A stretch of DNA of 39,296 nucleotides, from IMG/VR virus record IMGVR_UViG_2541047784_000014. The stretch is one strand, 5' to 3'. Both the position numbers and the translations under genes were made by a program. Below are positions 1 through 39,296 of the stretch, in pieces (positions within the stretch are counted from its first letter, which is position 1; each line of letters begins with the position of its first letter). The notes beneath the pieces are model-generated. The model ran no database searches, was not told where the DNA came from, and was given only the letters and a program-made list of their open reading frames with translations. The stretch comes from a virus. Lineage: Duplodnaviria; Heunggongvirae; Uroviricota; Caudoviricetes.

Positions 1-516
1 ATGAAATTTAAAAAATGTCTTCTGCCTGTGGCAATGTTAGCGTCATTCACTCTGGCAGGATGCCAGTCAAATGCTGATGATCATGCCGCCGATGTTTATC
101 AAACCGATCAACTGAATACCAAACAAGAAACTAAAACCGTTAATATTATTTCCATTCTTCCCGCAAAAGTTGCCGTAGACAACGCCCAAAATAAACGGAA
201 CGCACAAGCCTTCGGCGCGCTTATTGGCGCTGTCGCTGGCGGTGTTATCGGCCACAACGTCGGGTCTGGCAGCAATTCCGGAACGACGGCAGGTGCAGTT
301 GGCGGCGGAGCTGTAGGCGCGGCAGCGGGTTCTATGGTGAATGATAAAACCTTAGTGGAAGGTGTTTCTTTAACATATAAGGAAGGCACCAAAGTGTATA
401 CCTCCACCCAAGTGGGTAAAGAGTGCCAGTTTACGACAGGTTTAGCCGTTGTTATTACCACGACGTATAACGAAACGCGTATTCAGCCAAATACCAAATG
501 TCCTGAAAAGAGCTAA
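1..516 (+). CDS. yfgH: Host outer-membrane lipoprotein with glycine-zipper region (YfgH-like)
   Basis: ORF from position 1; N-terminal lipoprotein signal with lipobox LAGC; Gly/Ala-rich zipper segment; size (171 aa) and position next to a 179-aa yfgI-like gene and a guaA 3' remnant match the E. coli yfgH-yfgI-guaA neighbourhood. Symbol assigned from synteny and size, not alignment. Confidence 0.7.
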   Translation: MKFKKCLLPVAMLASFTLAGCQSNADDHAADVYQTDQLNTKQETKTVNIISILPAKVAVDNAQNKRNAQAFGALIGAVAGGVIGHNVGSGSNSGTTAGAVGGGAVGAAAGSMVNDKTLVEGVSLTYKEGTKVYTSTQVGKECQFTTGLAVVITTTYNETRIQPNTKCPEKS

Positions 517-531
517 TAATCAGGAGGAGTC

Positions 532-1071
532 ATGAAGAAAGTTTTTCTTTGCGCCATCTTAGCCTCCTTAAGCTATCCGGCTATCGCCTCATCATTGCAG
601 GATCAACTCTCGGCTGTCGCAGAAGCGGAACAGCAAGGTAAAAATGAAGAGCAAAGGCAGCATGACGAATGGGTCGCGGAGCGCAACAGGGAAATCCAGC
701 AAGAGAAGCAACGTCGCGCAAACGCCCAGGCCGCGGCTAATAAAAGAGCGGCAACGGCAGCAGCGAATAAGAAAGCTCGTCAGGATAAACTGGACGCCGA
801 AGCCACTGCGGACAAAAAACGCGATCAAAGTTATGAAGATGAGCTACGTAGCTTAGAGATTCAGAAACAAAAACTGGCGCTGGCGAAAGAAGAAGCCCGC
901 GTTAAGCGCGAAAACGAATTTATCGATCAGGAACTGAAGCACAAAGCTGCGCAAACCGATGTGGTGCAATCTGAAGCTGACGCAAACAGAAATATGACTG
1001 AAGGCGGTCGCGATCTGATGAAAAGCGTGGGTAAAGCAGAAGAGAATAAATCAGATAGCTGGTTTAACTAA
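532..1071 (+). CDS. yfgI: Host secreted coiled-coil protein (YfgI-like)
   Basis: ATG at 532 preceded by AGGAGG; N-terminal signal peptide; Lys/Glu/Ala-rich helical body; 179 aa as for E. coli YfgI; followed by a hairpin terminator. Symbol from synteny and size. Confidence 0.7.
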   Translation: MKKVFLCAILASLSYPAIASSLQDQLSAVAEAEQQGKNEEQRQHDEWVAERNREIQQEKQRRANAQAAANKRAATAAANKKARQDKLDAEATADKKRDQSYEDELRSLEIQKQKLALAKEEARVKRENEFIDQELKHKAAQTDVVQSEADANRNMTEGGRDLMKSVGKAEENKSDSWFN

Positions 1072-1110: not shown

Positions 1111-1140
1111 AAAAACCCTCTGTAGTAACAGAGGGTTTTG
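1111..1140. terminator. Rho-independent terminator, probably bidirectional
   Basis: Hairpin CCCTCTGT-agta-ACAGAGGG (1116-1135) flanked by an A-run (1111-1115) and a T-run (1136-1139); lies between yfgI and the prophage end. Confidence 0.7.
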
Positions 1141-1163
1141 TTCATTCATAGTGCAGGGTCAAA

Positions 1164-1178
1164 TCATTCCCACTCAAT
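1164..1178 (-). other. Displaced guaA 3' end (att core remnant) at the prophage left junction
   Basis: Reverse complement reads ATT GAG TGG GAA TGA = I-E-W-E-stop, the remembered C-terminus of GMP synthase; the reading frame upstream is immediately broken by a stop, so only the terminal codons are present, as expected for the duplicated core of a 3'-end-integrating element. Confidence 0.6.
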
Positions 1179-1288
1179 TATTTACGGATACCATAACCAA
1201 TTGAGTGATAACATTTTTCCAAAGATGAATTTTTCTCGTACCGTTTTATATACCGTCACCGGAAATCAGTACCATGAAAAATGCCATG

Positions 1289-1771
1289 CTATCTGGTCAG
1301 GGTGTCGTACTGTTTTTCGCAGACTCTTCCGGCTTCGGCTGCCCGGTCAGCATACTCTGCCAGTTGTCTATTTCTCTCGAGAGATTTGCTGAACACGTCG
1401 GCAAGCAAAACTCCGGTGTCTGCGGCTGACGACCCAGCGCCGACAATGGCGTTATAGTGCCTGAGCTGCTCACGGATGGCAACGAGCTGTTGCTGCAACC
1501 GGCCAGCGCGAGCGGCAGCATCAAGAGCATCATTGCGCGCCTGGTCGATCCTCTGCTGAGCTTCACGTTCATTGGTCACTTTCTCCTGTTCGTAGTACTG
1601 ACGAACTTTTTCTTCTTCGGCTTTGCAGTCTTCTTTCGCCTGCGCATACCCGGCGTCGTACTGACGGCTACCGTGTACATTCCAGGCAACAACTCCTGAT
1701 ATGACCAGAACAGCAAGCACTGCCACGATAATCAACTGTTTCCAGTATGCTTTTACGAATGCCCAGATCAT
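1289..1771 (-). CDS. Rz-like i-spanin
   Basis: N-terminal transmembrane segment followed by a coiled-coil periplasmic domain; start overlaps the endolysin stop (ATGA at 1768-1771); last gene of the lysis cassette. Confidence 0.7.
1297..1572 (-). CDS. Rz1-like o-spanin lipoprotein, embedded in Rz in another frame
   Basis: ORF entirely inside the Rz gene in a different frame; signal peptide ending in lipobox LAGC followed by a Pro/Ser-rich mature peptide. True start may be an internal Met. Confidence 0.55.
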   Translation of the reverse strand: MNVKLSRGSTRRAMMLLMLPLALAGCSNSSLPSVSSSGTITPLSALGRQPQTPEFCLPTCSANLSREIDNWQSMLTGQPKPEESAKNSTTP

Positions 1772-3086: not shown

Positions 3087-3249
3087 AATGAACACCGTTT
3101 ATTACGCATAACAATCTCCTTACTATTGAAGATTCACACATAATAAACCATTTAAGGATAATAGTTACCTCAAAACGCTGTATTTCTACCTTCTACGGCA
3201 ATGAAAATTTCGTTCAGAAAATGGTCTAGTGTACCTCTCAGTCACAATT

Positions 3250-3294
3250 AAAGAAGAAAGAAGCCGAACTTACTTCGTAATAAGCAAGCCGGCT
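3250..3294 (-). terminator. Putative terminator downstream of the tailspike gene
   Basis: Imperfect hairpin (AGCCG ... CGGCT with internal pairing) followed on the minus strand by a U/C-rich tract (UCUUUCUUCUUU). Confidence 0.35.
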
Positions 3295-3315
3295 ACTAAG
3301 ATTAATCCTCAATAT

Positions 3316-6072
3316 TTAGCTACTTTCAAGCATTGCAAGACGTGATTCTATTTTTTCGATTCTTCTACGCAAATAAGCTGACTCAAGCCATAAACACTGG
3401 TCAGTACGGATACCCCACCTATTTCCAGCCTTGCAAACCAGAGTTCGCTCTTCTGTTTCGTATTCTTCTTCCATCTCAATTTCGACGCCATCCACAACTT
3501 TAGTGATCATCCTTACCGCCATCACTGGCGCGTATTTATCATCCCATTCATCGTAACAGAGAAGGCCAAATCTGGTTCCATCAATCCCATGCGCGAGGAA
3601 AGTGTCTCTCACTTGTTGTGCTATAACACCAAAATGCCAGCGGGCACCATCTCCCTTTTCCCTGACGGCATCAAGCCAGCGAAAAGCTACAATCCTGATA
3701 TCTCCCCATGCATCCAGAATTGCATCACCTTCATAACCACGAGACATATACAAGCTGAGCTCACTTGTACTAATCGGTTCACTTTTTTCTCTACCATCTG
3801 ATGTGTTTATCGAACCGTTCGCAGAATAAACCTGTGCCCATCTAAATGATGGTGCACCAAGAGATTTGCTGTTATCAATAATTGGTGAAAAATTACCTTT
3901 AATGGCAATATTTCCAGAGTCGCCGAATATATTAATAACTGCAGAGTCATCACCATGGTTTTTTACGCTTAAGTTTCTTGATGAAATATTTATATCTTTG
4001 TTATATCCACTAACATTAATCCATCTTTTACCATCAATGTGATACCCGTAAATATTTCCGTCTGATTGTTCGTCAGGTGACTCTCTAAGAACAATAGCAT
4101 CTGCTCCAGACGACCATTGTATTTTTGTATCTGTAGGCCTCCAGTTCTTTATAATGAACGAACCATCAGTAAACTCCGTTTTTATTTGTCTATTGTCTAC
4201 AAATGCGTCTCTTGGTTTAAACTCACTTGTGTTAACGCTGCTCTGAAGATCAGAAGCAAAAAATCTAAGATTTCCTGTATAACCCTGAGTCTCGGTCTGG
4301 TTATACGCAATCATAATTCCATTTTCAAACTCAGATGATGTTATTTTAACATCACGGCAATCACCAAAAATGCAATTTCCTTTATCAAATGTTGTTTGAG
4401 CTTTGAATTTATCAAACCTTAAATTACGAACAGGGAAACCATCAACCTCTAATGCAAAGGATGCAGGAAGGCCAAAGTATTCTGATGGCTTACCTGATGT
4501 ATGATCAAGAGTAGTGGCTACTGTATTCTCAAAAACAGTCCCGCTAAAATTATTACCAATTGACGGAAACCTGATTACACTTATTGTACCTTGTATTTCA
4601 GGAGAAATACCAGATAGTGTGATGTTAGCTCCATCAAATGATGCATCTGAATACGTATATACTGATTCACTGCCAGCAATTTTAAACTGTTTAACTGAAG
4701 TTATTCTCATCGACTTTTTATGTTTAAATGTCACTGAGCTTTCAGTATTACTTACAAGATCAATCTGAGGGCTATTCCTTATCGCGATCCCTGACTGGAC
4801 ATAAACGTTATTAAAGTGCGTTTTTTCAGGATTTCCCTTCATTGAAAGGCTCCCGTCATTTTCTGTCAGTAGTAGTCCTTTTACCCTCCAATAGCCGACA
4901 ATCTGTACGTTATCAATAACTGAATCACAGCTATCGTATACATGCAACCCTATATCCCAGTCATCACCCAATGAATAAGAATCAGGGTTATTGTATCCTT
5001 CAATACCATTTTTACTTACCATTATTCTCAGGTTGCGTAACTGTGATGCCCTGTTGATACTAACAGCTACGCTCATGGCTTTTGGTGTAGCAGGAGTAAC
5101 ACCTACAGAATCTTCATTTGTAAACTCAGTGAACTTACAAGATATCCCTTCAACAATTTTAATTGGTCTTTCATTAGAGATGTTAAAAAAATATTTGTTT
5201 TTTTCTCCATCACCAGTAAATACAAGATGGGTTCCTTTACTCCAACTTTTTAATAATCTTTCAGGCGCTGGTCTATATGTATCCCAATAATCAATGCCAT
5301 CACCAATTAAAGACACTCCAGGAGGCACATCTATGTTCTTAGAAATCATCCATTTACCTGCAGGTATTCTAACGACACTTGCACCAGAATTTATCGCATT
5401 AATTAACCATTCAGACGCATCAACTTCAAAATTTAATGCAGCATATCTTTGCTCAAACGGAACAAAATCAAGAGCGTTAACGTTATCCCGCATCTTATCC
5501 TGGAACGTTCGGTATACTGCTCCAGAACCATACTGAATAAACCAACCAAAACCACCAACAACTCCGGCGATTGCAGCATCAACATAATTACGCATTGAGC
5601 GATTATTTACAGCATCCTGCTCAAGTGATGGATCTGCAAGGTTAGAAATTCTGTTTTGCTTTGCATCGTAATATTTTGCAAGCAAAGATGGTTTCATCAA
5701 TGCACGTCTGAACCACCCAAAACATTGCTGGATCAGCATCGTCAGGTAGTCAAAAGCATCTTCATGCACTTCGGGGAAAAATTTTCCCTGATTGCGAAGG
5801 TCTGTCTCCTGCACTACATCAAGCACACGATCTATCGTAATTCGCCATCCAGCAGCAAGCGGCGACGGAAGAACAACAGAACCGCCACTATAAGTGCCCG
5901 CCCCAGTTACCGTATAACCGGTATCCAGAACCAATTCTGTTACGTTCCCGTTCAGGTCAGACACCTGAACAACCAGGTCGGATTTTTTGAAAATACGGAA
6001 GGTATACGGAAATGATGTCGTAGCGCCGTTACCGGTGTATTCGTTGTGGTCAACTTCGGTTGAGACCGTCAT
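3316..6072 (-). CDS. Tailspike / tail fibre with T7 gp17-like N-terminal tail-attachment domain and C-terminal S74-type intramolecular chaperone domain
   Basis: GGAG 9 nt before the ATG; N-terminus (YTGNGATTSFPYTFRIF..DLVV) resembles the T7 tail-fibre N-terminal domain; AT-rich central receptor-binding region; C-terminus carries SDGREK and HFGVIAQQV motifs typical of auto-cleaving chaperone domains. Confidence 0.85.
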   Translation of the reverse strand: MTVSTEVDHNEYTGNGATTSFPYTFRIFKKSDLVVQVSDLNGNVTELVLDTGYTVTGAGTYSGGSVVLPSPLAAGWRITIDRVLDVVQETDLRNQGKFFPEVHEDAFDYLTMLIQQCFGWFRRALMKPSLLAKYYDAKQNRISNLADPSLEQDAVNNRSMRNYVDAAIAGVVGGFGWFIQYGSGAVYRTFQDKMRDNVNALDFVPFEQRYAALNFEVDASEWLINAINSGASVVRIPAGKWMISKNIDVPPGVSLIGDGIDYWDTYRPAPERLLKSWSKGTHLVFTGDGEKNKYFFNISNERPIKIVEGISCKFTEFTNEDSVGVTPATPKAMSVAVSINRASQLRNLRIMVSKNGIEGYNNPDSYSLGDDWDIGLHVYDSCDSVIDNVQIVGYWRVKGLLLTENDGSLSMKGNPEKTHFNNVYVQSGIAIRNSPQIDLVSNTESSVTFKHKKSMRITSVKQFKIAGSESVYTYSDASFDGANITLSGISPEIQGTISVIRFPSIGNNFSGTVFENTVATTLDHTSGKPSEYFGLPASFALEVDGFPVRNLRFDKFKAQTTFDKGNCIFGDCRDVKITSSEFENGIMIAYNQTETQGYTGNLRFFASDLQSSVNTSEFKPRDAFVDNRQIKTEFTDGSFIIKNWRPTDTKIQWSSGADAIVLRESPDEQSDGNIYGYHIDGKRWINVSGYNKDINISSRNLSVKNHGDDSAVINIFGDSGNIAIKGNFSPIIDNSKSLGAPSFRWAQVYSANGSINTSDGREKSEPISTSELSLYMSRGYEGDAILDAWGDIRIVAFRWLDAVREKGDGARWHFGVIAQQVRDTFLAHGIDGTRFGLLCYDEWDDKYAPVMAVRMITKVVDGVEIEMEEEYETEERTLVCKAGNRWGIRTDQCLWLESAYLRRRIEKIESRLAMLESS

Positions 6073-6175
6073 GTTAAATCTCCAGATAGTCGCAGCACCC
6101 GTTGCGCCGCATATCTGGTTATTCTATTACCTGAAAAACCACATATGGATAGATAATCCATAAATACGAAAAGAT

Positions 6176-6192
6176 ATTACCTTTCAGGTAAT
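6176..6192. promoter_or_regulatory. Dyad operator-like site ATTACCTTTCAGGTAAT
   Basis: Perfect 6-bp inverted arms around a 5-bp spacer; member of a motif family found at about twelve intergenic sites; sits between the tailspike start and the LexA-box promoter. Confidence 0.5.
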
Positions 6193-6230
6193 TTGCAAAA
6201 CGTGCTGGATAGCAAACAAATTATTTGCTA

Positions 6231-6246
6231 CTGTATAAATATACAG
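6231..6246. promoter_or_regulatory. LexA (SOS) box CTGTATAAATATACAG
   Basis: CTGT-N8-ACAG with an AT-rich centre, near-identical to the E. coli consensus TACTGTATATATATACAGTA; 22 nt upstream of the ATG at 6268; an internal TATAAAT could be the -10 element. Confidence 0.7.
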
Positions 6247-6267
6247 TTATTGCATGGAGAAGATAAG

Positions 6268-6525
6268 ATGCAGCAGTATCACTATCCACTGGAAGACGGA
6301 TTTACCGAAAGGATTCACACGCCGGGAGGCGTCAGGTCACTGGTGGAGGGATCGCACTTGATGAAATTACTCCGGGATCTCGATAAGGATGGATTTAATG
6401 TCGATGGCCCACTTGCCGAACTGACTGCACTGATTAACTACGTCACCAGCTCACAGATGTCTATGCAGGATCTGCAAACACATCTCGACTATTGTGCCGA
6501 ACAATTACGAAAGCAAACCAGATAA
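6268..6525 (+). CDS. Small antirepressor-like protein, paralog of the C-terminal domain of the adjacent Bro-N antirepressor
   Basis: ATG with GGAG 10 nt upstream; residues TPGGVRSLVEGSHLMKLLRDL...DLQTHLDYCAEQ parallel SPSGVLGLTENSLLMNLLNQL...DIQTHAEYINDK at the end of the 6839-7531 product; directly downstream of the LexA box. Confidence 0.6.
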   Translation: MQQYHYPLEDGFTERIHTPGGVRSLVEGSHLMKLLRDLDKDGFNVDGPLAELTALINYVTSSQMSMQDLQTHLDYCAEQLRKQTR

Positions 6526-6555
6526 GGTTTGCAATTACCAAGTGGAGTGCTTATA

Positions 6556-6572
6556 TTTACCTTTGCGGTAAA
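6556..6572. promoter_or_regulatory. Dyad operator-like site TTTACCTTTGCGGTAAA
   Basis: Same motif family; nested in a longer inverted repeat GGAGTGC...GCACTCC (6544-6587). Confidence 0.45.
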
Positions 6573-6664
6573 TTTACATCGCACTCCTCTTGTGCCATAG
6601 TAATCGGGCACTGGCAAAATCCAGTGCCGGGATTGGTCTCCCGGATTACTACAGAGGCACATAT

Positions 6665-6684
6665 GCCGCATAAGCGGTTTTTTT
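6665..6684 (+). terminator. Putative Rho-independent terminator
   Basis: Short hairpin CCGC-ataa-GCGG followed by seven T; preceded by a stable hairpin GGCACTGG-caaaat-CCAGTGCC (6607-6628). Confidence 0.45.
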
Positions 6685-6838
6685 ATGTGTAAAGCGCACC
6701 TATTCTATGGTGGGCTGTGTGGGGGCACCGAAAGGTGCGCCGGGTTCCTTTGTAGCCGGTAAGACCAACTCTGCACAGTTCACCACCATCTGATTGGTCT
6801 CAGCGGTGGTGATTAACCTAACTACAAAGGTGATCGCC

Positions 6839-7531
6839 ATGAATACCAAACCTTCCATCTTTTCCTTTGAGTCATCCTGCCAGATCCGTATGTTCATGAT
6901 TGACGGAGAACCTTGGTTTGTCACCAAAGATGTGTGCAATGCTTTGAATATTGATGTTACACAAGCGAGAAAACTTGATAAAAAAGGCTGGAACAAAAAG
7001 GGGCTGTATTCAATACAGACCCCTGGTGGAATACAAGAACTATCCATCGTTTCAGAATCAGGTCTCTACATCCTTATTCTGCGTTGCAAAGAGGCTATGA
7101 CAGAGGGAACGAGAGCATTCAGATTTCTTGAATGGGTTACAGGTGAGGTTCTTCCTCAGATCCGCCGCACCGGAAGTTACATTAAAAACTCGCTCCCGCA
7201 GGAAGAACGCATAAAGATGGTTGCCGACCAGGTAGCCAACGCCACGGCGTCAGCAGTAATGCAGGCGATGAAGATAGAGAACAAAACCTACAGTGCCCCG
7301 CTGAAGCCCGGCTACCGCAGCCTGATTCACTCGCCGTCTGGTGTTCTCGGCCTGACGGAGAACTCACTGCTGATGAATCTGCTGAACCAGTTACAGGAAG
7401 ACGGGCACGACGTATCGGGCGCGGCGGCGGAGCTGACCACCATGTTCTGCTACATCGTCGGTGTGAGTAAATGCCTGCGTGATATCCAGACGCACGCGGA
7501 GTACATCAACGACAAGGCTGGGTTCTTCTGA
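6839..7531 (+). CDS. Antirepressor with Bro-N domain
   Basis: Start set at the ATG (MNTKPSIFSF...) with AAGGTG 8 nt upstream; N-terminus has the Bro-N pattern (F.F......R....DGEPWF.A.DV...L); C-terminal domain is paralogous to the 6268-6525 product. Confidence 0.8.
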   Translation: MNTKPSIFSFESSCQIRMFMIDGEPWFVTKDVCNALNIDVTQARKLDKKGWNKKGLYSIQTPGGIQELSIVSESGLYILILRCKEAMTEGTRAFRFLEWVTGEVLPQIRRTGSYIKNSLPQEERIKMVADQVANATASAVMQAMKIENKTYSAPLKPGYRSLIHSPSGVLGLTENSLLMNLLNQLQEDGHDVSGAAAELTTMFCYIVGVSKCLRDIQTHAEYINDKAGFF

Positions 7532-7596
7532 CGGGCGGCGGCACATGGATGTGCCTTTAAAATAATCATTGGCGATGTGATGTAGATTCGCGTAAT

Positions 7597-7613
7597 ATTA
7601 CCTTAAAGGTAAA
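7597..7613. promoter_or_regulatory. Dyad operator-like site ATTACCTTAAAGGTAAA
   Basis: Same motif family; 26 nt upstream of the ATG at 7639, close to its strong ribosome-binding site. Confidence 0.45.
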
Positions 7614-7638
7614 CCATGTGTTTACATGAGGAGGAGAT

Positions 7639-7848
7639 ATGGGATTTTGGTTCGCTCGTACAAAAACGAGGGATAATGCACCCAGCCCTCAGGCAAAAAA
7701 TGCAGAAGTTCCGGCGTCAGCGCAGGTTAACAAGCGTGGTGGAGTATATATCTCATCACAGCAAATTTCTGAGCTTCCTGAGGTTAAGGAGATGCGTCGT
7801 CTCGCTGCTGCAATTGTTAAACAGGATCTTGCCACTGTAAGGAAGTAG
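7639..7848 (+). CDS. Hypothetical small protein (69 aa), first gene of an accessory two-gene operon
   Basis: ATG preceded by GAGGAGGAG; stop TAG overlaps the GTG of the next gene (TAGTG). Confidence 0.6.
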   Translation: MGFWFARTKTRDNAPSPQAKNAEVPASAQVNKRGGVYISSQQISELPEVKEMRRLAAAIVKQDLATVRK

Positions 7849-8714
7849 TGTTGCTAGCTCTTCTAATTATCCCAATCCTGGTTAGCGGTTATATTATGAT
7901 AACCGCTAACCAGTATCATTATTTCCGTTTATACCGACACGAAGGCCAGCTTCTTTATATGAAAGTAGCGGCACTAGGTACATATTGCCTTGTTGCATCA
8001 GTAATAATTGCAGCCGCTATAAAATATAAATGGCCTGATTTTCACCTAGTTCACGATATGGTGGAAACTTTTAATGTAACATCAAAACCAGAAACAGATA
8101 GAATTTACATGTGGCTGCTTCTTCTCTCAGCCACATCCATTTGCTTCTCTTTGTGTTATGTGTCTGTTGTGTGGGTGAAAGATTTTCTTCTTGGTTGTTT
8201 TTATAAACGTGATATTTACGAGCAAAAAACAGAGGCAATGAAGGCCAGAGTACTGCGAAAAACTTACTCGCAAGGTTCTTTAGACTTACTATTGCTTGAT
8301 GCTATTGAATCGGATCCTAAACGACCAATGCTGATTACTTTATCATCAAACAAAGTGTATGTTGGAATAATAAATGGTTCTGGTGAACCAACGGAAAATC
8401 AGGGTCCGCATCAGCACATATCTTTTGTTCCTTTAATGTCAGGATACAGGAACAAAGAAAACTTATCTGTCACATTCACTAATGCTTATCCAGGAGAAAT
8501 ACAGGTCAAGCGGACTGCAGCAATAAGAGGAATTAGCAGAAAGAAAGTGCCAGGACTTGAGATCATGGTGTCTATTGACGAAATAAGTTATATATCATGG
8601 TTTGATTTTGAAGTATATAAAGCAACAAATAACAAAGTAGAATCCAGGGGGCACGTTATTCGTGTTACCAAAAATGGAAGAAATATATATCAAAGAAATA
8701 GCAAAAAAGAATAG
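7848..8714 (+). CDS. Hypothetical inner-membrane protein (about 3 N-terminal TM segments plus a roughly 170-aa soluble domain); candidate superinfection-exclusion or abortive-infection factor
   Basis: Long AT-rich ORF with hydrophobic N-terminus, translationally coupled to the 69-aa gene and followed by a strong terminator. Start uncertain (GTG 7848, TTG 7851 or ATG 7896). Function is inference only. Confidence 0.65.
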   Translation: MLLALLIIPILVSGYIMITANQYHYFRLYRHEGQLLYMKVAALGTYCLVASVIIAAAIKYKWPDFHLVHDMVETFNVTSKPETDRIYMWLLLLSATSICFSLCYVSVVWVKDFLLGCFYKRDIYEQKTEAMKARVLRKTYSQGSLDLLLLDAIESDPKRPMLITLSSNKVYVGIINGSGEPTENQGPHQHISFVPLMSGYRNKENLSVTFTNAYPGEIQVKRTAAIRGISRKKVPGLEIMVSIDEISYISWFDFEVYKATNNKVESRGHVIRVTKNGRNIYQRNSKKE

Positions 8715-8735
8715 CCCGCGCTGCGGGCTTTTTTG
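8713..8735 (+). terminator. Rho-independent terminator
   Basis: Hairpin AGCCCGC-gct-GCGGGCT followed by a T-run, immediately after the stop at 8712-8714. Confidence 0.8.
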
Positions 8736-8772
8736 TGTCTGCGGATTCCCGCCCGGGCGGCGGTGGCATTCG

Positions 8773-8798
8773 TTAAAAACAAGGCCGCGAAAGCGGCC
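8773..8798 (-). terminator. Rho-independent terminator for the minus-strand gene 8813-9262
   Basis: Hairpin GGCCGC-gaaa-GCGGCC (8783-8798) followed on the minus strand by UUGUUUUU. Confidence 0.7.
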
Positions 8799-8799
8799 T

Positions 8800-8811
8800 G
8801 TGACATGTCAC
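8800..8811. repeat. 12-bp perfect palindrome GTGACATGTCAC (copy 1 of 3)
   Basis: Identical 12-mer also at 25802-25813 and 28066-28077, each next to a terminator-type hairpin; here it lies between the stop codon (8813-8815) and the terminator hairpin. Confidence 0.6.
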
Positions 8812-8812
8812 G

Positions 8813-9262
8813 CTACTTGCGAAATCTTTCTTTACCCTTCCAGCCAGTAGATGTTAGTTCAGGATGAATGGTTCCCAATATAAAGCCAACCATAGCGGAG
8901 CGAGGATCTTCTATTTTATCCGTTAATTCTTCGGCATAACTCACAGGCAACCAAGCAACAAGATCACCAATCCTCAGCTTTGGTCCTTTGCTGTAAGATG
9001 AATCGGCAATAACAAAAAATCCACCATCAGCTGAGCACACCTTCAGCATTGCCCTTTGTCTTCCAGAATCTAGCAAAACTGGCTGTTCCCCACTTGGACC
9101 AGGTATGATGATGGCTGGCATTGGTTTATTGGCTGAAAGGCTTGTGTCAAGATACTTACACGCATACTCAAAAGCTGAAAAGTTATCCTTAAAGATAAGA
9201 GGTTGAATTTTATTGCTAACCTCCTTACCACCGATTAATCTGTTGATCATCTTCTTGAACAT
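8813..9262 (-). CDS. Hypothetical protein (about 149 aa)
   Basis: ORF with in-frame ATG codons at 9262 and 9250 (the track start is a GTG at 9271); moderately AT-rich; followed by palindrome and terminator. Confidence 0.55.
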   Translation of the reverse strand: MFKKMINRLIGGKEVSNKIQPLIFKDNFSAFEYACKYLDTSLSANKPMPAIIIPGPSGEQPVLLDSGRQRAMLKVCSADGGFFVIADSSYSKGPKLRIGDLVAWLPVSYAEELTDKIEDPRSAMVGFILGTIHPELTSTGWKGKERFRK

Positions 9263-9274
9263 AAAGGTCACCTA

Positions 9275-9715
9275 ATGATTAAGCCGATGCACGCTATTAC
9301 AGCTACCGTTTTGTTTATCCTACCAATTTTTTCGTTTGCAAACGACATATGTTTTAAGAATTTAATAAATGAGGATATGTGTGCACATGCAAACAAAATT
9401 GCATCAGAAGCAGGAAAGTCACTTCCCATAAAATTGAATGATAATATGTCTATTGTTTCAATAAATGCAATACTAAACAAACTTTTAGTTGTAGCGCATC
9501 TTAATTACAACAACAGCTATTTATCAAAAGTTTATAACGGTGATGTAACCTTAGAAAATAAATTAAAGAGTGTAATGCGAAATTATTCAAAATCGAGCAT
9601 TTGCTCCAACAGGCAAATGAAAGCATTTATTCACCTTGGCGGAGAGATTGAATATAGGTATGTATTTAGTGATGGCAATATATTTGATACATACGCCATC
9701 ACTAATTGTGAATAG
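9275..9715 (+). CDS. Secreted (signal-peptide) Cys-containing protein, AT-rich accessory gene
   Basis: Predicted signal peptide (probable cleavage after FSFA); 4 Cys in the mature part; very AT-rich; on the strand opposite to the flanking late genes, its stop codon abutting the convergent stop of the 1129-aa gene (TAG/CTA at 9713-9718). Confidence 0.6.
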   Translation: MIKPMHAITATVLFILPIFSFANDICFKNLINEDMCAHANKIASEAGKSLPIKLNDNMSIVSINAILNKLLVVAHLNYNNSYLSKVYNGDVTLENKLKSVMRNYSKSSICSNRQMKAFIHLGGEIEYRYVFSDGNIFDTYAITNCE

Positions 9716-12700
9716 CTATTTCATCTGCTCTTCAACTTTATTTAGTAACGGTGATATCGCCCACAGGTTCTGAAAAGGTAGCATTTTACGGACCGCGTGG
9801 GTTTGCTGGCTGTCAAATTCTCCGTTAAGTACACCATTCGCAACCGTCGCGGCATCACCGCCAAGATCAAAGGTAGGACCAAGTAAAGCACCAATAGCAT
9901 TACGACTCTGAAACCTTGATACCGGAGGCGCACCAAACATCGCGCCAAGACCAAACCTACCGCCGCTTATGTTCTCAACGGTATTCAGCGGCTCAGAGAG
10001 CCAGCCAAGCATTCCGCCCCGGTCGATCCCCTCTTTCACAAGGTTATTCCAGCTGTAGTCGATATCGCGACCGCTTAACTTCTGTTTCATCATATAGACC
10101 ATTGAGCCAAGCGCAATCGTGCCAAGCGCACCAAGATAGAATGCAGCATCGCCCTGCTGGATACCAGATACTAGCACCCTGTTATGCTGTGCGAAGATAA
10201 ACGTTTTGAACTGCGTGATCATCTTCCAGCCTTCTTTACTAAAAAACAGCGGTGTATCACCTACGCCAGGCGTTACAATCACTGAGTCTACATCTTTCAG
10301 CACTGCAGACTGGAAAATCTCTCTAGCGAAACGGTCATCCCACAGATGACTATGCCCGGTTAACAGCCCGTCCATATCCTCTCCGTGCTTCCCGAATTGC
10401 TCCCCGATTCGGCGCAGAACATCTTCATTGATGCCGACCTGTGCCATCTTCCGCATTTCACTTTTGGAGAGCGTGCCACCAGCAGAAACTTGGCGAGCCG
10501 CGTCAAGTATCCTCGACTGCACTATCATCCCGGACCATGATTTAAGTGCGCTGTTCCACTGATTCATCAGCGTCCAGTTACCGAATTTCTGCGTCATCCA
10601 GTTCAGACCTCGCTCAGCGGCGCTTCTCCGGCTATAGGGGTCAGTAAGATCCGCTATAGCCTTTGTACGCGTAGACAGGACATAATCAAGCCCAACGGCC
10701 ATTTCTCGCAAATCCCTGGTTGCAATTTTCACTGAGTCCATATTTTTAAGCATGCTTACCATTGGTCCGAGAGATTTTCTCAGGCCATGCTGCATCATCG
10801 GTCGCATCAGATCAGTTGCAGCGGAGACAGTCATTCCACCAAGCAAACGGAGGAAGTTAATATTCCTAGCAACTCGCCCGGCACGAACAAAGAAACTGCG
10901 TGGATCTTGAGGTGCACCGTAAGTACCAAGCAGTCGATCACGCATAGCCGTAATATCCCTAATATCAGCCTCCCGTTGCTTCTCAAGAACTGCACGTCGT
11001 TTAGGTGTTTTAGCCTCTTTTATTAGCCGGGTATATTCCTCACTAACCTGACGGATTTGCTCCCCCATATCTTTACGGCCAAACTGCGCAGTCAGCTCAA
11101 TTTCTGGTGCCACCTGCCGGAGATAACTTTCCATGATGTAGTTAACATCTGATTCAAGAAAATCTTCTATACGCTCATCAGGAATAAGCAGCGTTCTGCT
11201 TTTAGTGAAACCAGCCCGACCAACGAGTCTCTCTGGGATAATATCGGCTGGTACAAGCCCGGAAGGTGCGCCTATTATTTTATTCACGATCTCGTCAGCA
11301 GCGTCCTCTGCTTCCTCTCGGGATAGAGGCTCCATCTGCTTCAGTGCTCGTTCGCGGCTTGCATTCAGCCTTGTGGTTGAATTTGCCCGTTTTTGCAGTC
11401 GGCGAAGCTCAGAACGATATTTCCGTGGATTATCCAGCAACTCCATATGGCGCTGATAGACAGGAAGCTCACTCTTTGCCTGCGCTATATCATCAAGGCG
11501 TGTTTTAAGGTCAGAGCTTTCTTTCATCATTCTTGCCTGAAGTTTTTCTGATGAAGTCTCGGCCAACTCTTTTTCTATTCTTGTAAGACGCGCCTGTGTG
11601 TCAGTCTCCTGAGATATAAGCTTATTTCGTTTATCCAGTTCTTCCATGAGTAGAATTTTTTTACCAGACCATTTCTCCGCTTCAGCGATTTCACTAGCGA
11701 GAGCATCAGCGCGCGGTGCCGATTCCTCTGCAGTTTTTAGCAATGAATTTATCCTTTCAATTCGCTGACCTGCTTTGTCAGCACCTTTGGCACTAATCCC
11801 TTGTATCCAGTTGGCAATTCGCCCTCTGAATTCAGTGCGGTCGGAAAGTATCTTATCGAACTTATAAATGCGGGGAAGATAACTTTTCGCCGTCACGACA
11901 TCGATATCCTCAGGAAGGATCCCCAGTTCCTGCATACGGGCTTTTGTGGTCTCGAAAATGGGGCGGATTCTGGCGGCTGCTTGTGAAACCTCAGGAATAT
12001 CACTCTGATCACCACGGCGCATAGCCATGCCAACAGCTTCATTGAACTCAATAAAGTTCATCCTCTTCACGCCGCGGGCGCTAACAGATTTGCTGTACTG
12101 CTGGTAAGCATCACGAGTGGCTTCCATCTGCTTATAAAGCATGGCGTCGTATTGCTTAATCTTAGTCTCGACTGCCGTAAACGTAGCCAACCCCTCATCA
12201 TTTTTGGCGAAGAAATAGTTATTTTCGGCAAGCTGCTGGTTAATCTGACGGGAGACAAGAGATGGTGATTGAGCCAAGCGGCCAGCAGGAGTGACACTCA
12301 ACGTTTTGTTAGCAAGTCCAAGTCCAGCGAGCTGTTCCTGATCGAGTGTGGTATTGAAAACCTGAGCTGCACCAATGCTTTGAGGAGAATCCATACCTCG
12401 CAAATGATTACCTACTGAGTTAACCACTGCCTCGCGCGCGCTAGGTCCAGCAAGTAGCTGTGCACCAGCACCAAGGATCCCACCAACGAGAGCATCAACA
12501 ACAACGTTCGATACGCTCTCCATCGGTGAGCGAGCTTCCTGAGTGGCCTGTAATGCGGCTTCTGATACTCCCCCACCAGCAGCATTCGCCAGGGCAAAAC
12601 GCCCTGCCGTCTCAGCAATACTTCCTCCACGCGCTACCGCCCCTACAGGGATAAACATTGCAGCCACATTAACCGGGTCTATCATTCCCATTGCTAAGCT

Positions 12701-25494: not shown

Positions 25495-25571
25495 GTGGCA
25501 TTAGCTCAGTTGGACAGAGCAACCGCCTTCTAAGCGGTTGGTCGCAGGTTCGAATCCTGCATGCCACGCCA
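25495..25571 (+). tRNA. tRNA-Arg, anticodon UCU
   Basis: Full cloverleaf: acceptor GTGGCAT/ATGCCAC, D-arm GCTC-AGTTGGACA-GAGC, anticodon stem ACCGC/GCGGT with loop CTTCTAA, T-arm GCAGG-TTCGAAT-CCTGC, discriminator G and encoded CCA; close to E. coli argU. Confidence 0.9.
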
Positions 25572-29330: not shown

Positions 29331-29954
29331 TCACTCTCCTTTGATGCGAATGCCAGCGGCGCGCTCGGATTCACTTTGTTCCCAAAACCACTTGTGAAGC
29401 TCCATAAGCTTTTCGTCAATCGGTGCATATTTGCGATTAAAGTAGGCCTGAGCATCTTTCTCAGATTCGTCCGGCAATTCGCCAGGGCCAAACAGTGTGT
29501 TATAAATCCATGCCAGTCCGCTCTTAGCGTCGCCAGTTGCCTGCCATTCGATAATCGCAGCCTGCATGACCAGAATGTTTTTCCCGATTAACAGGTCCAG
29601 TTCTTTGAACCGGTTGCGGATGTATGCATTCTCGCTTTGTAATTCAGCGTTGCGCTTCTCTGCGGCTTCCAGCTCAACTCGCAGCTTCCCAACCGTAAGC
29701 GCAATATCCTCGTTCTCCTGGTCACGGCGTTTTATGTATTGCTGGTTTCTTTCCCGTTCATCCAGCAGTGCCAGCACCGTTTCCGGGCCGGTCAGCAGTT
29801 TGAAGTTGTTAATCGCATCAATATCAACATCGCTATCTTTAAGCTCCTTTTCGCTTAACAAGTCATCATCGGCTGGCAACGTTAACAGGCGTTCCATTGC
29901 CGGAATTGCGCGTTCTGCCGCTTCACGCAGTGCCTGATAGTCAATCTTGCTCAC
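29331..29954 (-). CDS. Hypothetical coiled-coil early protein
   Basis: 207 aa with a central coiled-coil segment; start overlaps the upstream stop. Confidence 0.6.
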   Translation of the reverse strand: MSKIDYQALREAAERAIPAMERLLTLPADDDLLSEKELKDSDVDIDAINNFKLLTGPETVLALLDERERNQQYIKRRDQENEDIALTVGKLRVELEAAEKRNAELQSENAYIRNRFKELDLLIGKNILVMQAAIIEWQATGDAKSGLAWIYNTLFGPGELPDESEKDAQAYFNRKYAPIDEKLMELHKWFWEQSESERAAGIRIKGE

Positions 29955-38045: not shown

Positions 38046-39296
38046 TTATTCCCCCGCCATCCACTTCTCAAACTTCGACGGGGAGAACGGAATCAGATCC
38101 GTATGCTCCCCGTCAATCCATGAATCAATCATATCGGCCCACTGCTGCAACATGTAGGCGCGCTGTCTGGCGTATTCCGCTTTGTTATATACGGCGCGCA
38201 CACCTTTCTGCTCATGTGCCAGAGCCTTTTCAATCCAGTCTGAAGGATAACCAGCCTCATGCAACAACGTACTGGCTGTACGGCGCATATCATGTACAGT
38301 GAAGTCCTGAATATGCTCACCATCTTCATTTATTATTTTCACCGTTCTGTCGATCAGAGAGTTCAGCGCGGCATTAGATAATGGCTTCCGGATATTGTAA
38401 CGACCAGGAACCAGATATTCACTTCCACCAGCGCACATCTGCAACCCGACCAATATATCCTGTGCCTGTTTAGGCAGGTAAATAACGTGCGCCCGGCTTC
38501 CCTTCATGCGGTCTGGAGGAATTGTCCATGTCCATTTTTTAAAATCTATTTCATCCCACGTTGCATTGGTGAATTCGCCCTTACGAACCATAGTGATAAG
38601 CACCAGTTTTAAAGCCATTTTCATAGTGCCCATAGCACCAATGGCATCCAGCGTGCGGAAGAACAGGCCAATTTCTTCTGGTGTCAGTGTTCGCTCTCGT
38701 GGTTTAAATATGGCGATAGACGAAGGTTTAATGTCAGCCGCAGGATTAAACAAACCATGACCACGGTCATTGGCGTGACGGTATACGCTACTGATGATCT
38801 CCCTGGCCTGCACTGCTGTTGCCCGGCCACCGCGTTCGACAATCCGGTCACACAAATCACGAACCATCGATGTGGTAATTTCAGCCATCATTTTATTGCC
38901 AAGAACCGGAAGTATGTCACGGTCGATCACCGCCTGTTTCATTGCGCGGGTACTGTCAGCCAGGATGACGTGTTTCATATAACTGTCGGTATGTACCGCA
39001 AACGTCTCGGCACCACGAATCTTTTTGATACCGTCACGTTTAGCCGCAGCCGGTGACTGGCCTGCTTTAAGCAGCTTCTTTGCAGCAATCAGTTCTTCTC
39101 GCGCTTCTGCCAGGCTGATACCGTCACGCCCATACTGCCCGATTACCAGTGTTTCGCGGCGACCGTTGATACGGTAGTCATAGCGAAACGAGACCGTGCC
39201 TGACGTAAGCACAGCTACATACAGCCCGTCACGATCGGAAACCTTGTACAGTTTGTCCTGCGGCTTGAGGTTTTTTAATTTTGTATCGGTAAGCAC
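38046..39296 (-). CDS. Tyrosine integrase, P4-type (N-terminus truncated by the window edge)
   Basis: N-terminal LTDTKLKNLKP..YKVSDRDGLYVAV...FRYDYRINGRR pattern of P4-like integrases and a C-terminal catalytic region (R...HDMRRT...H..Y); the ORF is open at position 39296. Confidence 0.85.
   Translation of the reverse strand: MLTDTKLKNLKPQDKLYKVSDRDGLYVAVLTSGTVSFRYDYRINGRRETLVIGQYGRDGISLAEAREELIAAKKLLKAGQSPAAAKRDGIKKIRGAETFAVHTDSYMKHVILADSTRAMKQAVIDRDILPVLGNKMMAEITTSMVRDLCDRIVERGGRATAVQAREIISSVYRHANDRGHGLFNPAADIKPSSIAIFKPRERTLTPEEIGLFFRTLDAIGAMGTMKMALKLVLITMVRKGEFTNATWDEIDFKKWTWTIPPDRMKGSRAHVIYLPKQAQDILVGLQMCAGGSEYLVPGRYNIRKPLSNAALNSLIDRTVKIINEDGEHIQDFTVHDMRRTASTLLHEAGYPSDWIEKALAHEQKGVRAVYNKAEYARQRAYMLQQWADMIDSWIDGEHTDLIPFSPSKFEKWMAGE

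Follow-up and report, generated by a model that had tools for sequence, protein, structure and literature searches.

We identify positions 1141-1210 of the window, the whole 39,296-nt stretch of DNA analysed here, as the attL junction of a complete Uetakevirus prophage, a phiV10/epsilon15-like podovirus integrated at the 3' end of guaA by means of a P4-like integrase, and we place the probability of this reading at about 95%. Nothing that we found speaks against it, and it rests on the two junctions, on the attP of free phages and on a published attachment core. The site, the core, the integrase cluster and the phage genus have all been published, and the finding is thus a correct rediscovery of something already known. 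A preliminary description of the window had proposed integration into guaA at its 3' terminus, and this proved right, with an intact guaA beyond the integrase end and a direct repeat at both junctions. The window ends match E. coli record NZ_OZ040490.1 at 100%, and this record was used for the sequence beyond the right window end (in its extended form, L001).

At the left junction, the minus strand reads I-E-W-E-stop, as had been noticed from the sequence; the plus strand carries TCATTCCCACTCAAT, the reverse complement of which is ATTGAGTGGGAATGA, and the C-terminus of E. coli GuaA is PPATIEWE-stop. Translation of the minus-strand frame through the fragment gives WLWYP-stop-IIEWE-stop. The preliminary description was correct in treating the segment as a displaced fragment and not a gene, although it had placed the in-frame stop four codons upstream, whereas the stop is the TAA at 1182-1184, two codons upstream of ATT. 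The fragment lies within a 17-bp core, AATCATTCCCACTCAAT, that is common to attL, attR, attB and attP and spans the last four codons of guaA, its stop codon and two bases beyond. The other copy, at attR, occupies L001 5688-5704, which is window-equivalent 39487-39503, or 191-207 nt beyond the right window end. In a three-way alignment, homology of the left host flank to the K-12 empty site stops exactly at 1178, and right host homology starts past those same core bases at attR. The attP/attB core reported at the guaA 3' end for vB_EcoP_ZX5, attgagtgggaatgatt (PMC9782041), is the exact reverse complement of the core described here; the same study verified attB, attL and attR of vB_EcoP_ZX5 by PCR and Sanger sequencing and states the same sequence as the attP of phiV10 and epsilon15. 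The core is also present in the free-phage attP of phiV10, epsilon15, Tyrion and BUCT554. Coordinates are collected in Table 1.

Table 1. Features of the attachment region, the host flank and the terminal prophage genes, in window positions.
Feature	Position	Strand	Remarks
Host flank, yfgH (1-516) and yfgI (532-1071)	1-1071	+	Per annotation of the source record and of K-12
Native yfgI/guaA hairpin, predicted bidirectional terminator	1112-1139		Stem AAAACCCTCTGT / ACAGAGGGTTTT, loop AGTA
attL core AATCATTCCCACTCAAT, 17 bp	1162-1178		Alignment of attB (K-12), attL (window) and attR (source genome)
Displaced native guaA end, last four codons and stop (ATT GAG TGG GAA TGA)	1164-1178	-	Non-coding remnant
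Putative overlap (strand-exchange) region, TCCCACTC, which is GAGTGGGA in guaA sense	1168-1175		Inferred from the TCCCACTCAAT block and the GIsul2 core
Imperfect palindrome with 9-bp repeat	1171-1207		Two inverted IHF-like sites
P' arm of attP, core to first prophage gene	1179-1288		Phage DNA
First prophage gene, Rz-like spanin (DUF2514)	1289-1771	-	Pfam 4e-42; PGAP annotation
Integrase, 416 aa, last prophage gene	38046-39296	-	5' end faces attR and guaA

Past the integrase, the source record continues on the same strand with an intact guaA, followed by guaB and xseA. This guaA encodes 525 aa, and 192 nt separate its stop codon from the integrase start codon. The preliminary description had also called for a direct repeat of 1164-1178 at this junction and for an alignment with an uninterrupted yfgI-guaA locus. 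The repeat is present there, within a full identity block of 17 bp, and in K-12 the empty site runs in the order yfgH, yfgI, hairpin and convergent guaA, with yfgI, hairpin, core and guaA contiguous. The core-to-core length of the prophage is 38,325 bp (~38.3 kb). When the left host flank, one core and the right host flank are joined into a 118-nt empty site, this matches the uninterrupted sites of many E. coli genomes at 100% identity, and the insertion was therefore exact. The inner flanks joined through one core give attP, and the P arm, core and P' arm are contiguous in phiV10, epsilon15, Tyrion and BUCT554. Among 5426 complete E. coli genomes, the yfgI-guaA site is contiguous in 4571 and split in ~15%, and the integrase occurs in 554 (~10%). 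Close to the core, guaA of the source genome carries three synonymous differences from K-12 within 10 bp (L001 5705-5716; AGTTGCTGGTGG against GGTAGCTGGCGG). A longer, phage-derived replacement of guaA was considered here and ruled out, since the same allele is found at 100% identity in uninterrupted, prophage-free sites; the allele beside attR is natural variation and not a phage scar.

A 9-bp inverted repeat at the junction, to which the preliminary description had drawn attention, is indeed present and perfect (CACTCAATT at 1171-1179 and AATTGAGTG at 1199-1207; 9/9, 19-nt spacer), and it can be extended with two mismatches to 12/14 (CACTCAATTATTTA at 1171-1184, TAACCAATTGAGTG at 1194-1207). 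Given that a shuffled 39-kb window holds about four such 9-mer inverted pairs in total, one of them would hardly fall on the junction by chance, although the statistic is post hoc. The suggestion that the two arms are a core-type integrase binding pair flanking the crossover draws on this rarity, on the perfect 9 bp and their extension, on the overlap of the repeat with the core, and on the invariance of the left arm and TATTTAC in six phages. We nevertheless consider it unlikely. The overlap region of a tyrosine recombinase is typically 6-8 bp, and the spacer exceeds this at 19 nt, or 9 nt between the extended arms. Moreover, attB lacks both the spacer (1180-1198) and the right arm, which occur in phage DNA only; as the exchange must lie within 1162-1178, the pair cannot be the one that flanks the overlap. 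Across the six phages the right arm is kept only in part, as TCAA-N4-TTA, and epsilon15 retains 6/9 of the mirror despite having the same core. The bases that are kept are those of the IHF consensus, WATCAANNNNTTR, to which each of two IHF-like arms conforms at 12/13 positions (ACTCAATTATTTA at 1172-1184 on the plus strand and ACTCAATTGGTTA at 1206-1194 on the minus strand), and in the GenBank record of epsilon15 both corresponding positions are labelled as IHF sites. Judged from these sequences, the inverted repeat is likelier a pair of inverted IHF-type bending sites than a core-type pair. In a weaker version of the core-type proposal, the right arm is possibly an extra site for the core domain of Int.

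Besides the IHF-like pair, three blocks of the P' arm are invariant in the six phages, namely TATTTAC (1179-1185), GTACCGT (1238-1244) and ATACCGTCAC (1250-1259). The last of these is found on both arms, the second copy lying in the P arm by int (L001 5554-5563), with GTACCG near each copy. In the epsilon15 record, ATACCGTCAC is entered on each arm as a protein_bind feature for 'integrase', and we infer that the repeats are Int arm-type sites.

In this insertion, the P4-like tyrosine integrase recombined the phage attP with the chromosomal attB at the 17-bp core. The identical bases carried by attP rebuild guaA intact at attR, and the native codons, together with the native yfgI/guaA bidirectional terminator, remain at attL. 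A Klebsiella pneumoniae lysogen of a related phage, available with both junctions in the record of phage ST11-OXA245phi3.2 (L007 1692-1910 and L008 6590-6860), narrows the region of exchange. Its attL holds the native GAG TAA end (TTACTCCCACTCAAT), whereas guaA at its attR ends with the phage GAA TGA; in that genome, therefore, the final Glu codon and stop of guaA come from the phage. The two junctions of the lysogen share only TCCCACTCAAT, 11 bp, which places the exchange within this block (1168-1178 in window terms). For the island GIsul2, the sequence used at the 3' end of guaA is GAGTGGGA (PMC9376610). Taking this one Klebsiella lysogen and the more distant island together, strand exchange would probably occur within the ~8 bp TCCCACTC. 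A symmetric core-type pair around a 7-bp overlap (TAATCATT-CCCACTC-AATTATTT) was tried as a separate candidate and rejected, as it is symmetric at 6/8 positions, too weak to claim.

The assignment of the element to a phage genus comes from its ends and its gene content. At both ends, the prophage has 94-99% identity to phage isolates of Uetakevirus (among them phiV10, vB_EcoP_ZX5, phiv142-3, TL-2011b, and O157 typing phages 9 and 10) and is ~81% identical to Salmonella epsilon15 and SPN1S and to Enterobacter Tyrion and BUCT554. The spanin gene is followed by a GH19 endolysin and holins, and this lysis cassette has 94-98% DNA identity to the phiV10 group. The source annotation lists the terminase subunits, portal, major capsid, a T7 gp14-like core protein and a tail fibre, and in addition replication genes, RecT, YqaJ, an MT-A70 methylase, a repressor-like HTH protein and the integrase. 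The phiV10-like phage TL-2011b likewise sits at guaA (PMC3293862). GIsul2-like islands use the same guaA 3' end via related integrases, and the element could on that ground be taken for a guaA-targeting genomic island of the GIsul2 or CMGI-3 type, or for a decayed remnant, and not for a phage. We regard this as very improbable, given that the 38.3-kb element encodes phage structural, lysis, replication and repressor-like genes, that its ends are so close to those of isolated phages and, with respect to a remnant, that one small pseudogene (DUF551) is all that is annotated. The notion that I-E-W-E-stop is a chance 15-mer, the real junction lying elsewhere, has the shortness of the match in its favour and nothing more, and can be dismissed: the window has a single copy of the 17-mer AATCATTCCCACTCAAT, 100 shuffles gave no match to it even with up to two mismatches allowed, homology to the K-12 empty site ends at its last base, it is repeated at the other junction, and it is a published core.

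Several features of the prophage interior may be recorded here. A tail fibre or tailspike of 918 aa (3316-6072, minus strand) has a C-terminal Peptidase_S74 chaperone domain. It falls in the region 3100-9800, comprising the tail fibre and cargo, most of which matches one partial phage record only (Phi05_1387 B); it is here that the prophage is mosaic, in its host-range and cargo genes. An O-antigen-modifying gene like that of phiV10 or epsilon15 was not seen in the prophage. A hypothetical ORF (7848-8714, plus strand) has, close to its 5' end, a perfect 15-bp inverted repeat beginning CTGGTTAGCGGTTAT (7878-7892 and 7899-7913, 6-nt loop), the longest short-range inverted repeat of the window bar the host terminator. 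A tRNA-Arg gene (anticodon TCT; 25495-25571, plus strand), also present in the source record, is located between the terminase and portal regions. The truncated DUF551 pseudogene, which lacks its C-terminus (~29352-29489, source record), is the sole sign of decay.

That the integrase at the other end is of the P4 type, as first described, was borne out by its domains, Arm-DNA-bind_3 (PF13356), Phage_int_M and Phage_integrase. The P4-type arm-DNA-binding domain (PF13356/DUF4102) covers residues 2-87 (3.9e-20) and Phage_integrase (PF00589) residues 204-375 (3.4e-19), and the N-terminus matches the solved N-domains of CP4-like integrases 3ju0 and 3jtz. The protein is identical to epsilon15 Int at 360/412 positions (87%), and in this alignment the motifs HDMRR (HxxR), AHE and RAVYNK (tyrosine) are found, with residue roles assigned by inspection. 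At the DNA level, it is 98% identical to phiV10 int, and the phiV10 ortholog is annotated as cd00801 INT_P4. Smyshlyaev et al. 2021 (PMC8138268) define an 'epsilon15 cluster' in the IntSXT subgroup, all members of which target the guaA 3' flank, and the integrase described here is a close member of that cluster.

A survey of one genome per species gave 47 relatives of the integrase. Thirty of these (47-90% identity) lie 190-360 nt downstream of guaA in Gamma-, Beta- and Alphaproteobacteria, with hosts that include Citrobacter, Klebsiella, Edwardsiella, Morganella, Chromobacterium, Cupriavidus, Aromatoleum, Caulobacter and Phenylobacterium. In these thirty, guaA ends AT(T/C)GAGTGGGA(A/G)-stop, and GuaA ends IEWE in 30/30. 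The relative from Rahnella sp. PCH160 (L034; 57% identity) has no guaA upstream and is the sole such relative above 47% with a full 2.5-kb flank; it may have inserted at a secondary site or have changed its target. For three relatives, the upstream sequence is too short to decide on guaA, and none of the relatives at <=39% identity adjoins the gene.

Insertion at this site also bears on how guaA transcription ends. A terminator hairpin directly outside the junction had been proposed, and it was found, with the same hairpin between yfgI and guaA in K-12. The native hairpin folds at -19.3 kcal/mol on the plus strand and -17.8 kcal/mol on the minus strand (z ~-5), has U runs on both strands and is identical in the K-12 yfgI-guaA spacer. 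A simple terminator scan of 1000-1400 found nothing and so missed the native hairpin, an artefact of the tail rule, since the A/T runs on either side are taken up into the stem. Going by its structure, the native hairpin would serve both yfgI and guaA, which are convergent; after integration it is left beside yfgI, to the host side of attL.

A second hairpin, AACCCTCTGTAAAAACAGAGGGTT (L001 5620-5643), belongs to the P arm; it lies 41 nt after the new guaA stop and is 22/24 identical to the native one (window 1114-1137). In the guaA/int sense it has a 10-bp stem and the tail TTTGTTTTTA, folds at -16.4 kcal/mol and is picked up by the terminator scan; read the other way, it is without a T tract. 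In epsilon15, a substitution in the stem leaves it fully paired in the int sense, by way of a G-U pair, but produces a C-A mismatch in the other sense. Because guaBA and int share a strand, with int downstream, the P-arm hairpin probably ends guaA transcription and shields int from read-through, and the P arm would supply a replacement intrinsic terminator for guaA. Set beside the phage AACCCTCTGTAAAAACAGAGGGTT, the native hairpin of E. coli reads AACCCTCTGTAGTAACAGAGGGTT and that of Klebsiella (L007 ~1720-1745) reads ...AAAC..., and this near-identity to both native hairpins suggests that the P arm descends from a bacterial guaA flank. We would give even odds to the proposal that the P arm is a captured host guaA 3' flank, with its hairpin acting as a surrogate, one-directional terminator that ends guaBA transcription and silences int. 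Depositors annotate the P-arm hairpin as a terminator only, and neither its dual role nor its host origin was found stated in the literature cited here.

The attachment system can be compared with several that are known. The Uetakevirus phages phiV10, vB_EcoP_ZX5 and epsilon15 have the identical 17-bp core at the guaA 3' end. phiV10 and epsilon15 have the same attP layout as the prophage, in the order int, arm repeats, terminator hairpin, core, IHF-like sites, arm repeats and Rz, and the prophage departs from them by ordinary mosaic differences only, in that 3100-9800 is partly matched and the arms carry small substitutions. With the 'epsilon15 cluster' of IntSXT, it has in common the P4-like arm-binding N-terminal domain and the guaA 3' flank as target, and no difference was found. 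GIsul2 and related guaA islands insert at GAGTGGGA, which is inside the core described here. The GIsul2-type islands differ in being non-phage, in carrying resistance genes and in having a shorter, 8-bp core and a presumably more distant integrase. Phage P4 has the same integrase architecture, as judged by domains; its attP likewise lies upstream of int, which is transcribed away from the core, and its core is a copy of a host gene's 3' end, so that this gene stays intact. The target of P4 is the tRNA gene leuX, not a protein-coding gene. The P4 integrase falls in a different cluster from that of epsilon15 (PMC8138268).

Altogether, the value of this analysis as discovery is small, and its use is practical. 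The exact boundaries of the prophage are now available for annotating the genome, guaA is confirmed as undisrupted, and figures are given for the prevalence of the integrase and of the occupied site in E. coli. The conservation of the IEWE-stop end of GuaA means that one integrase lineage can use the site from Alpha- to Gammaproteobacteria.
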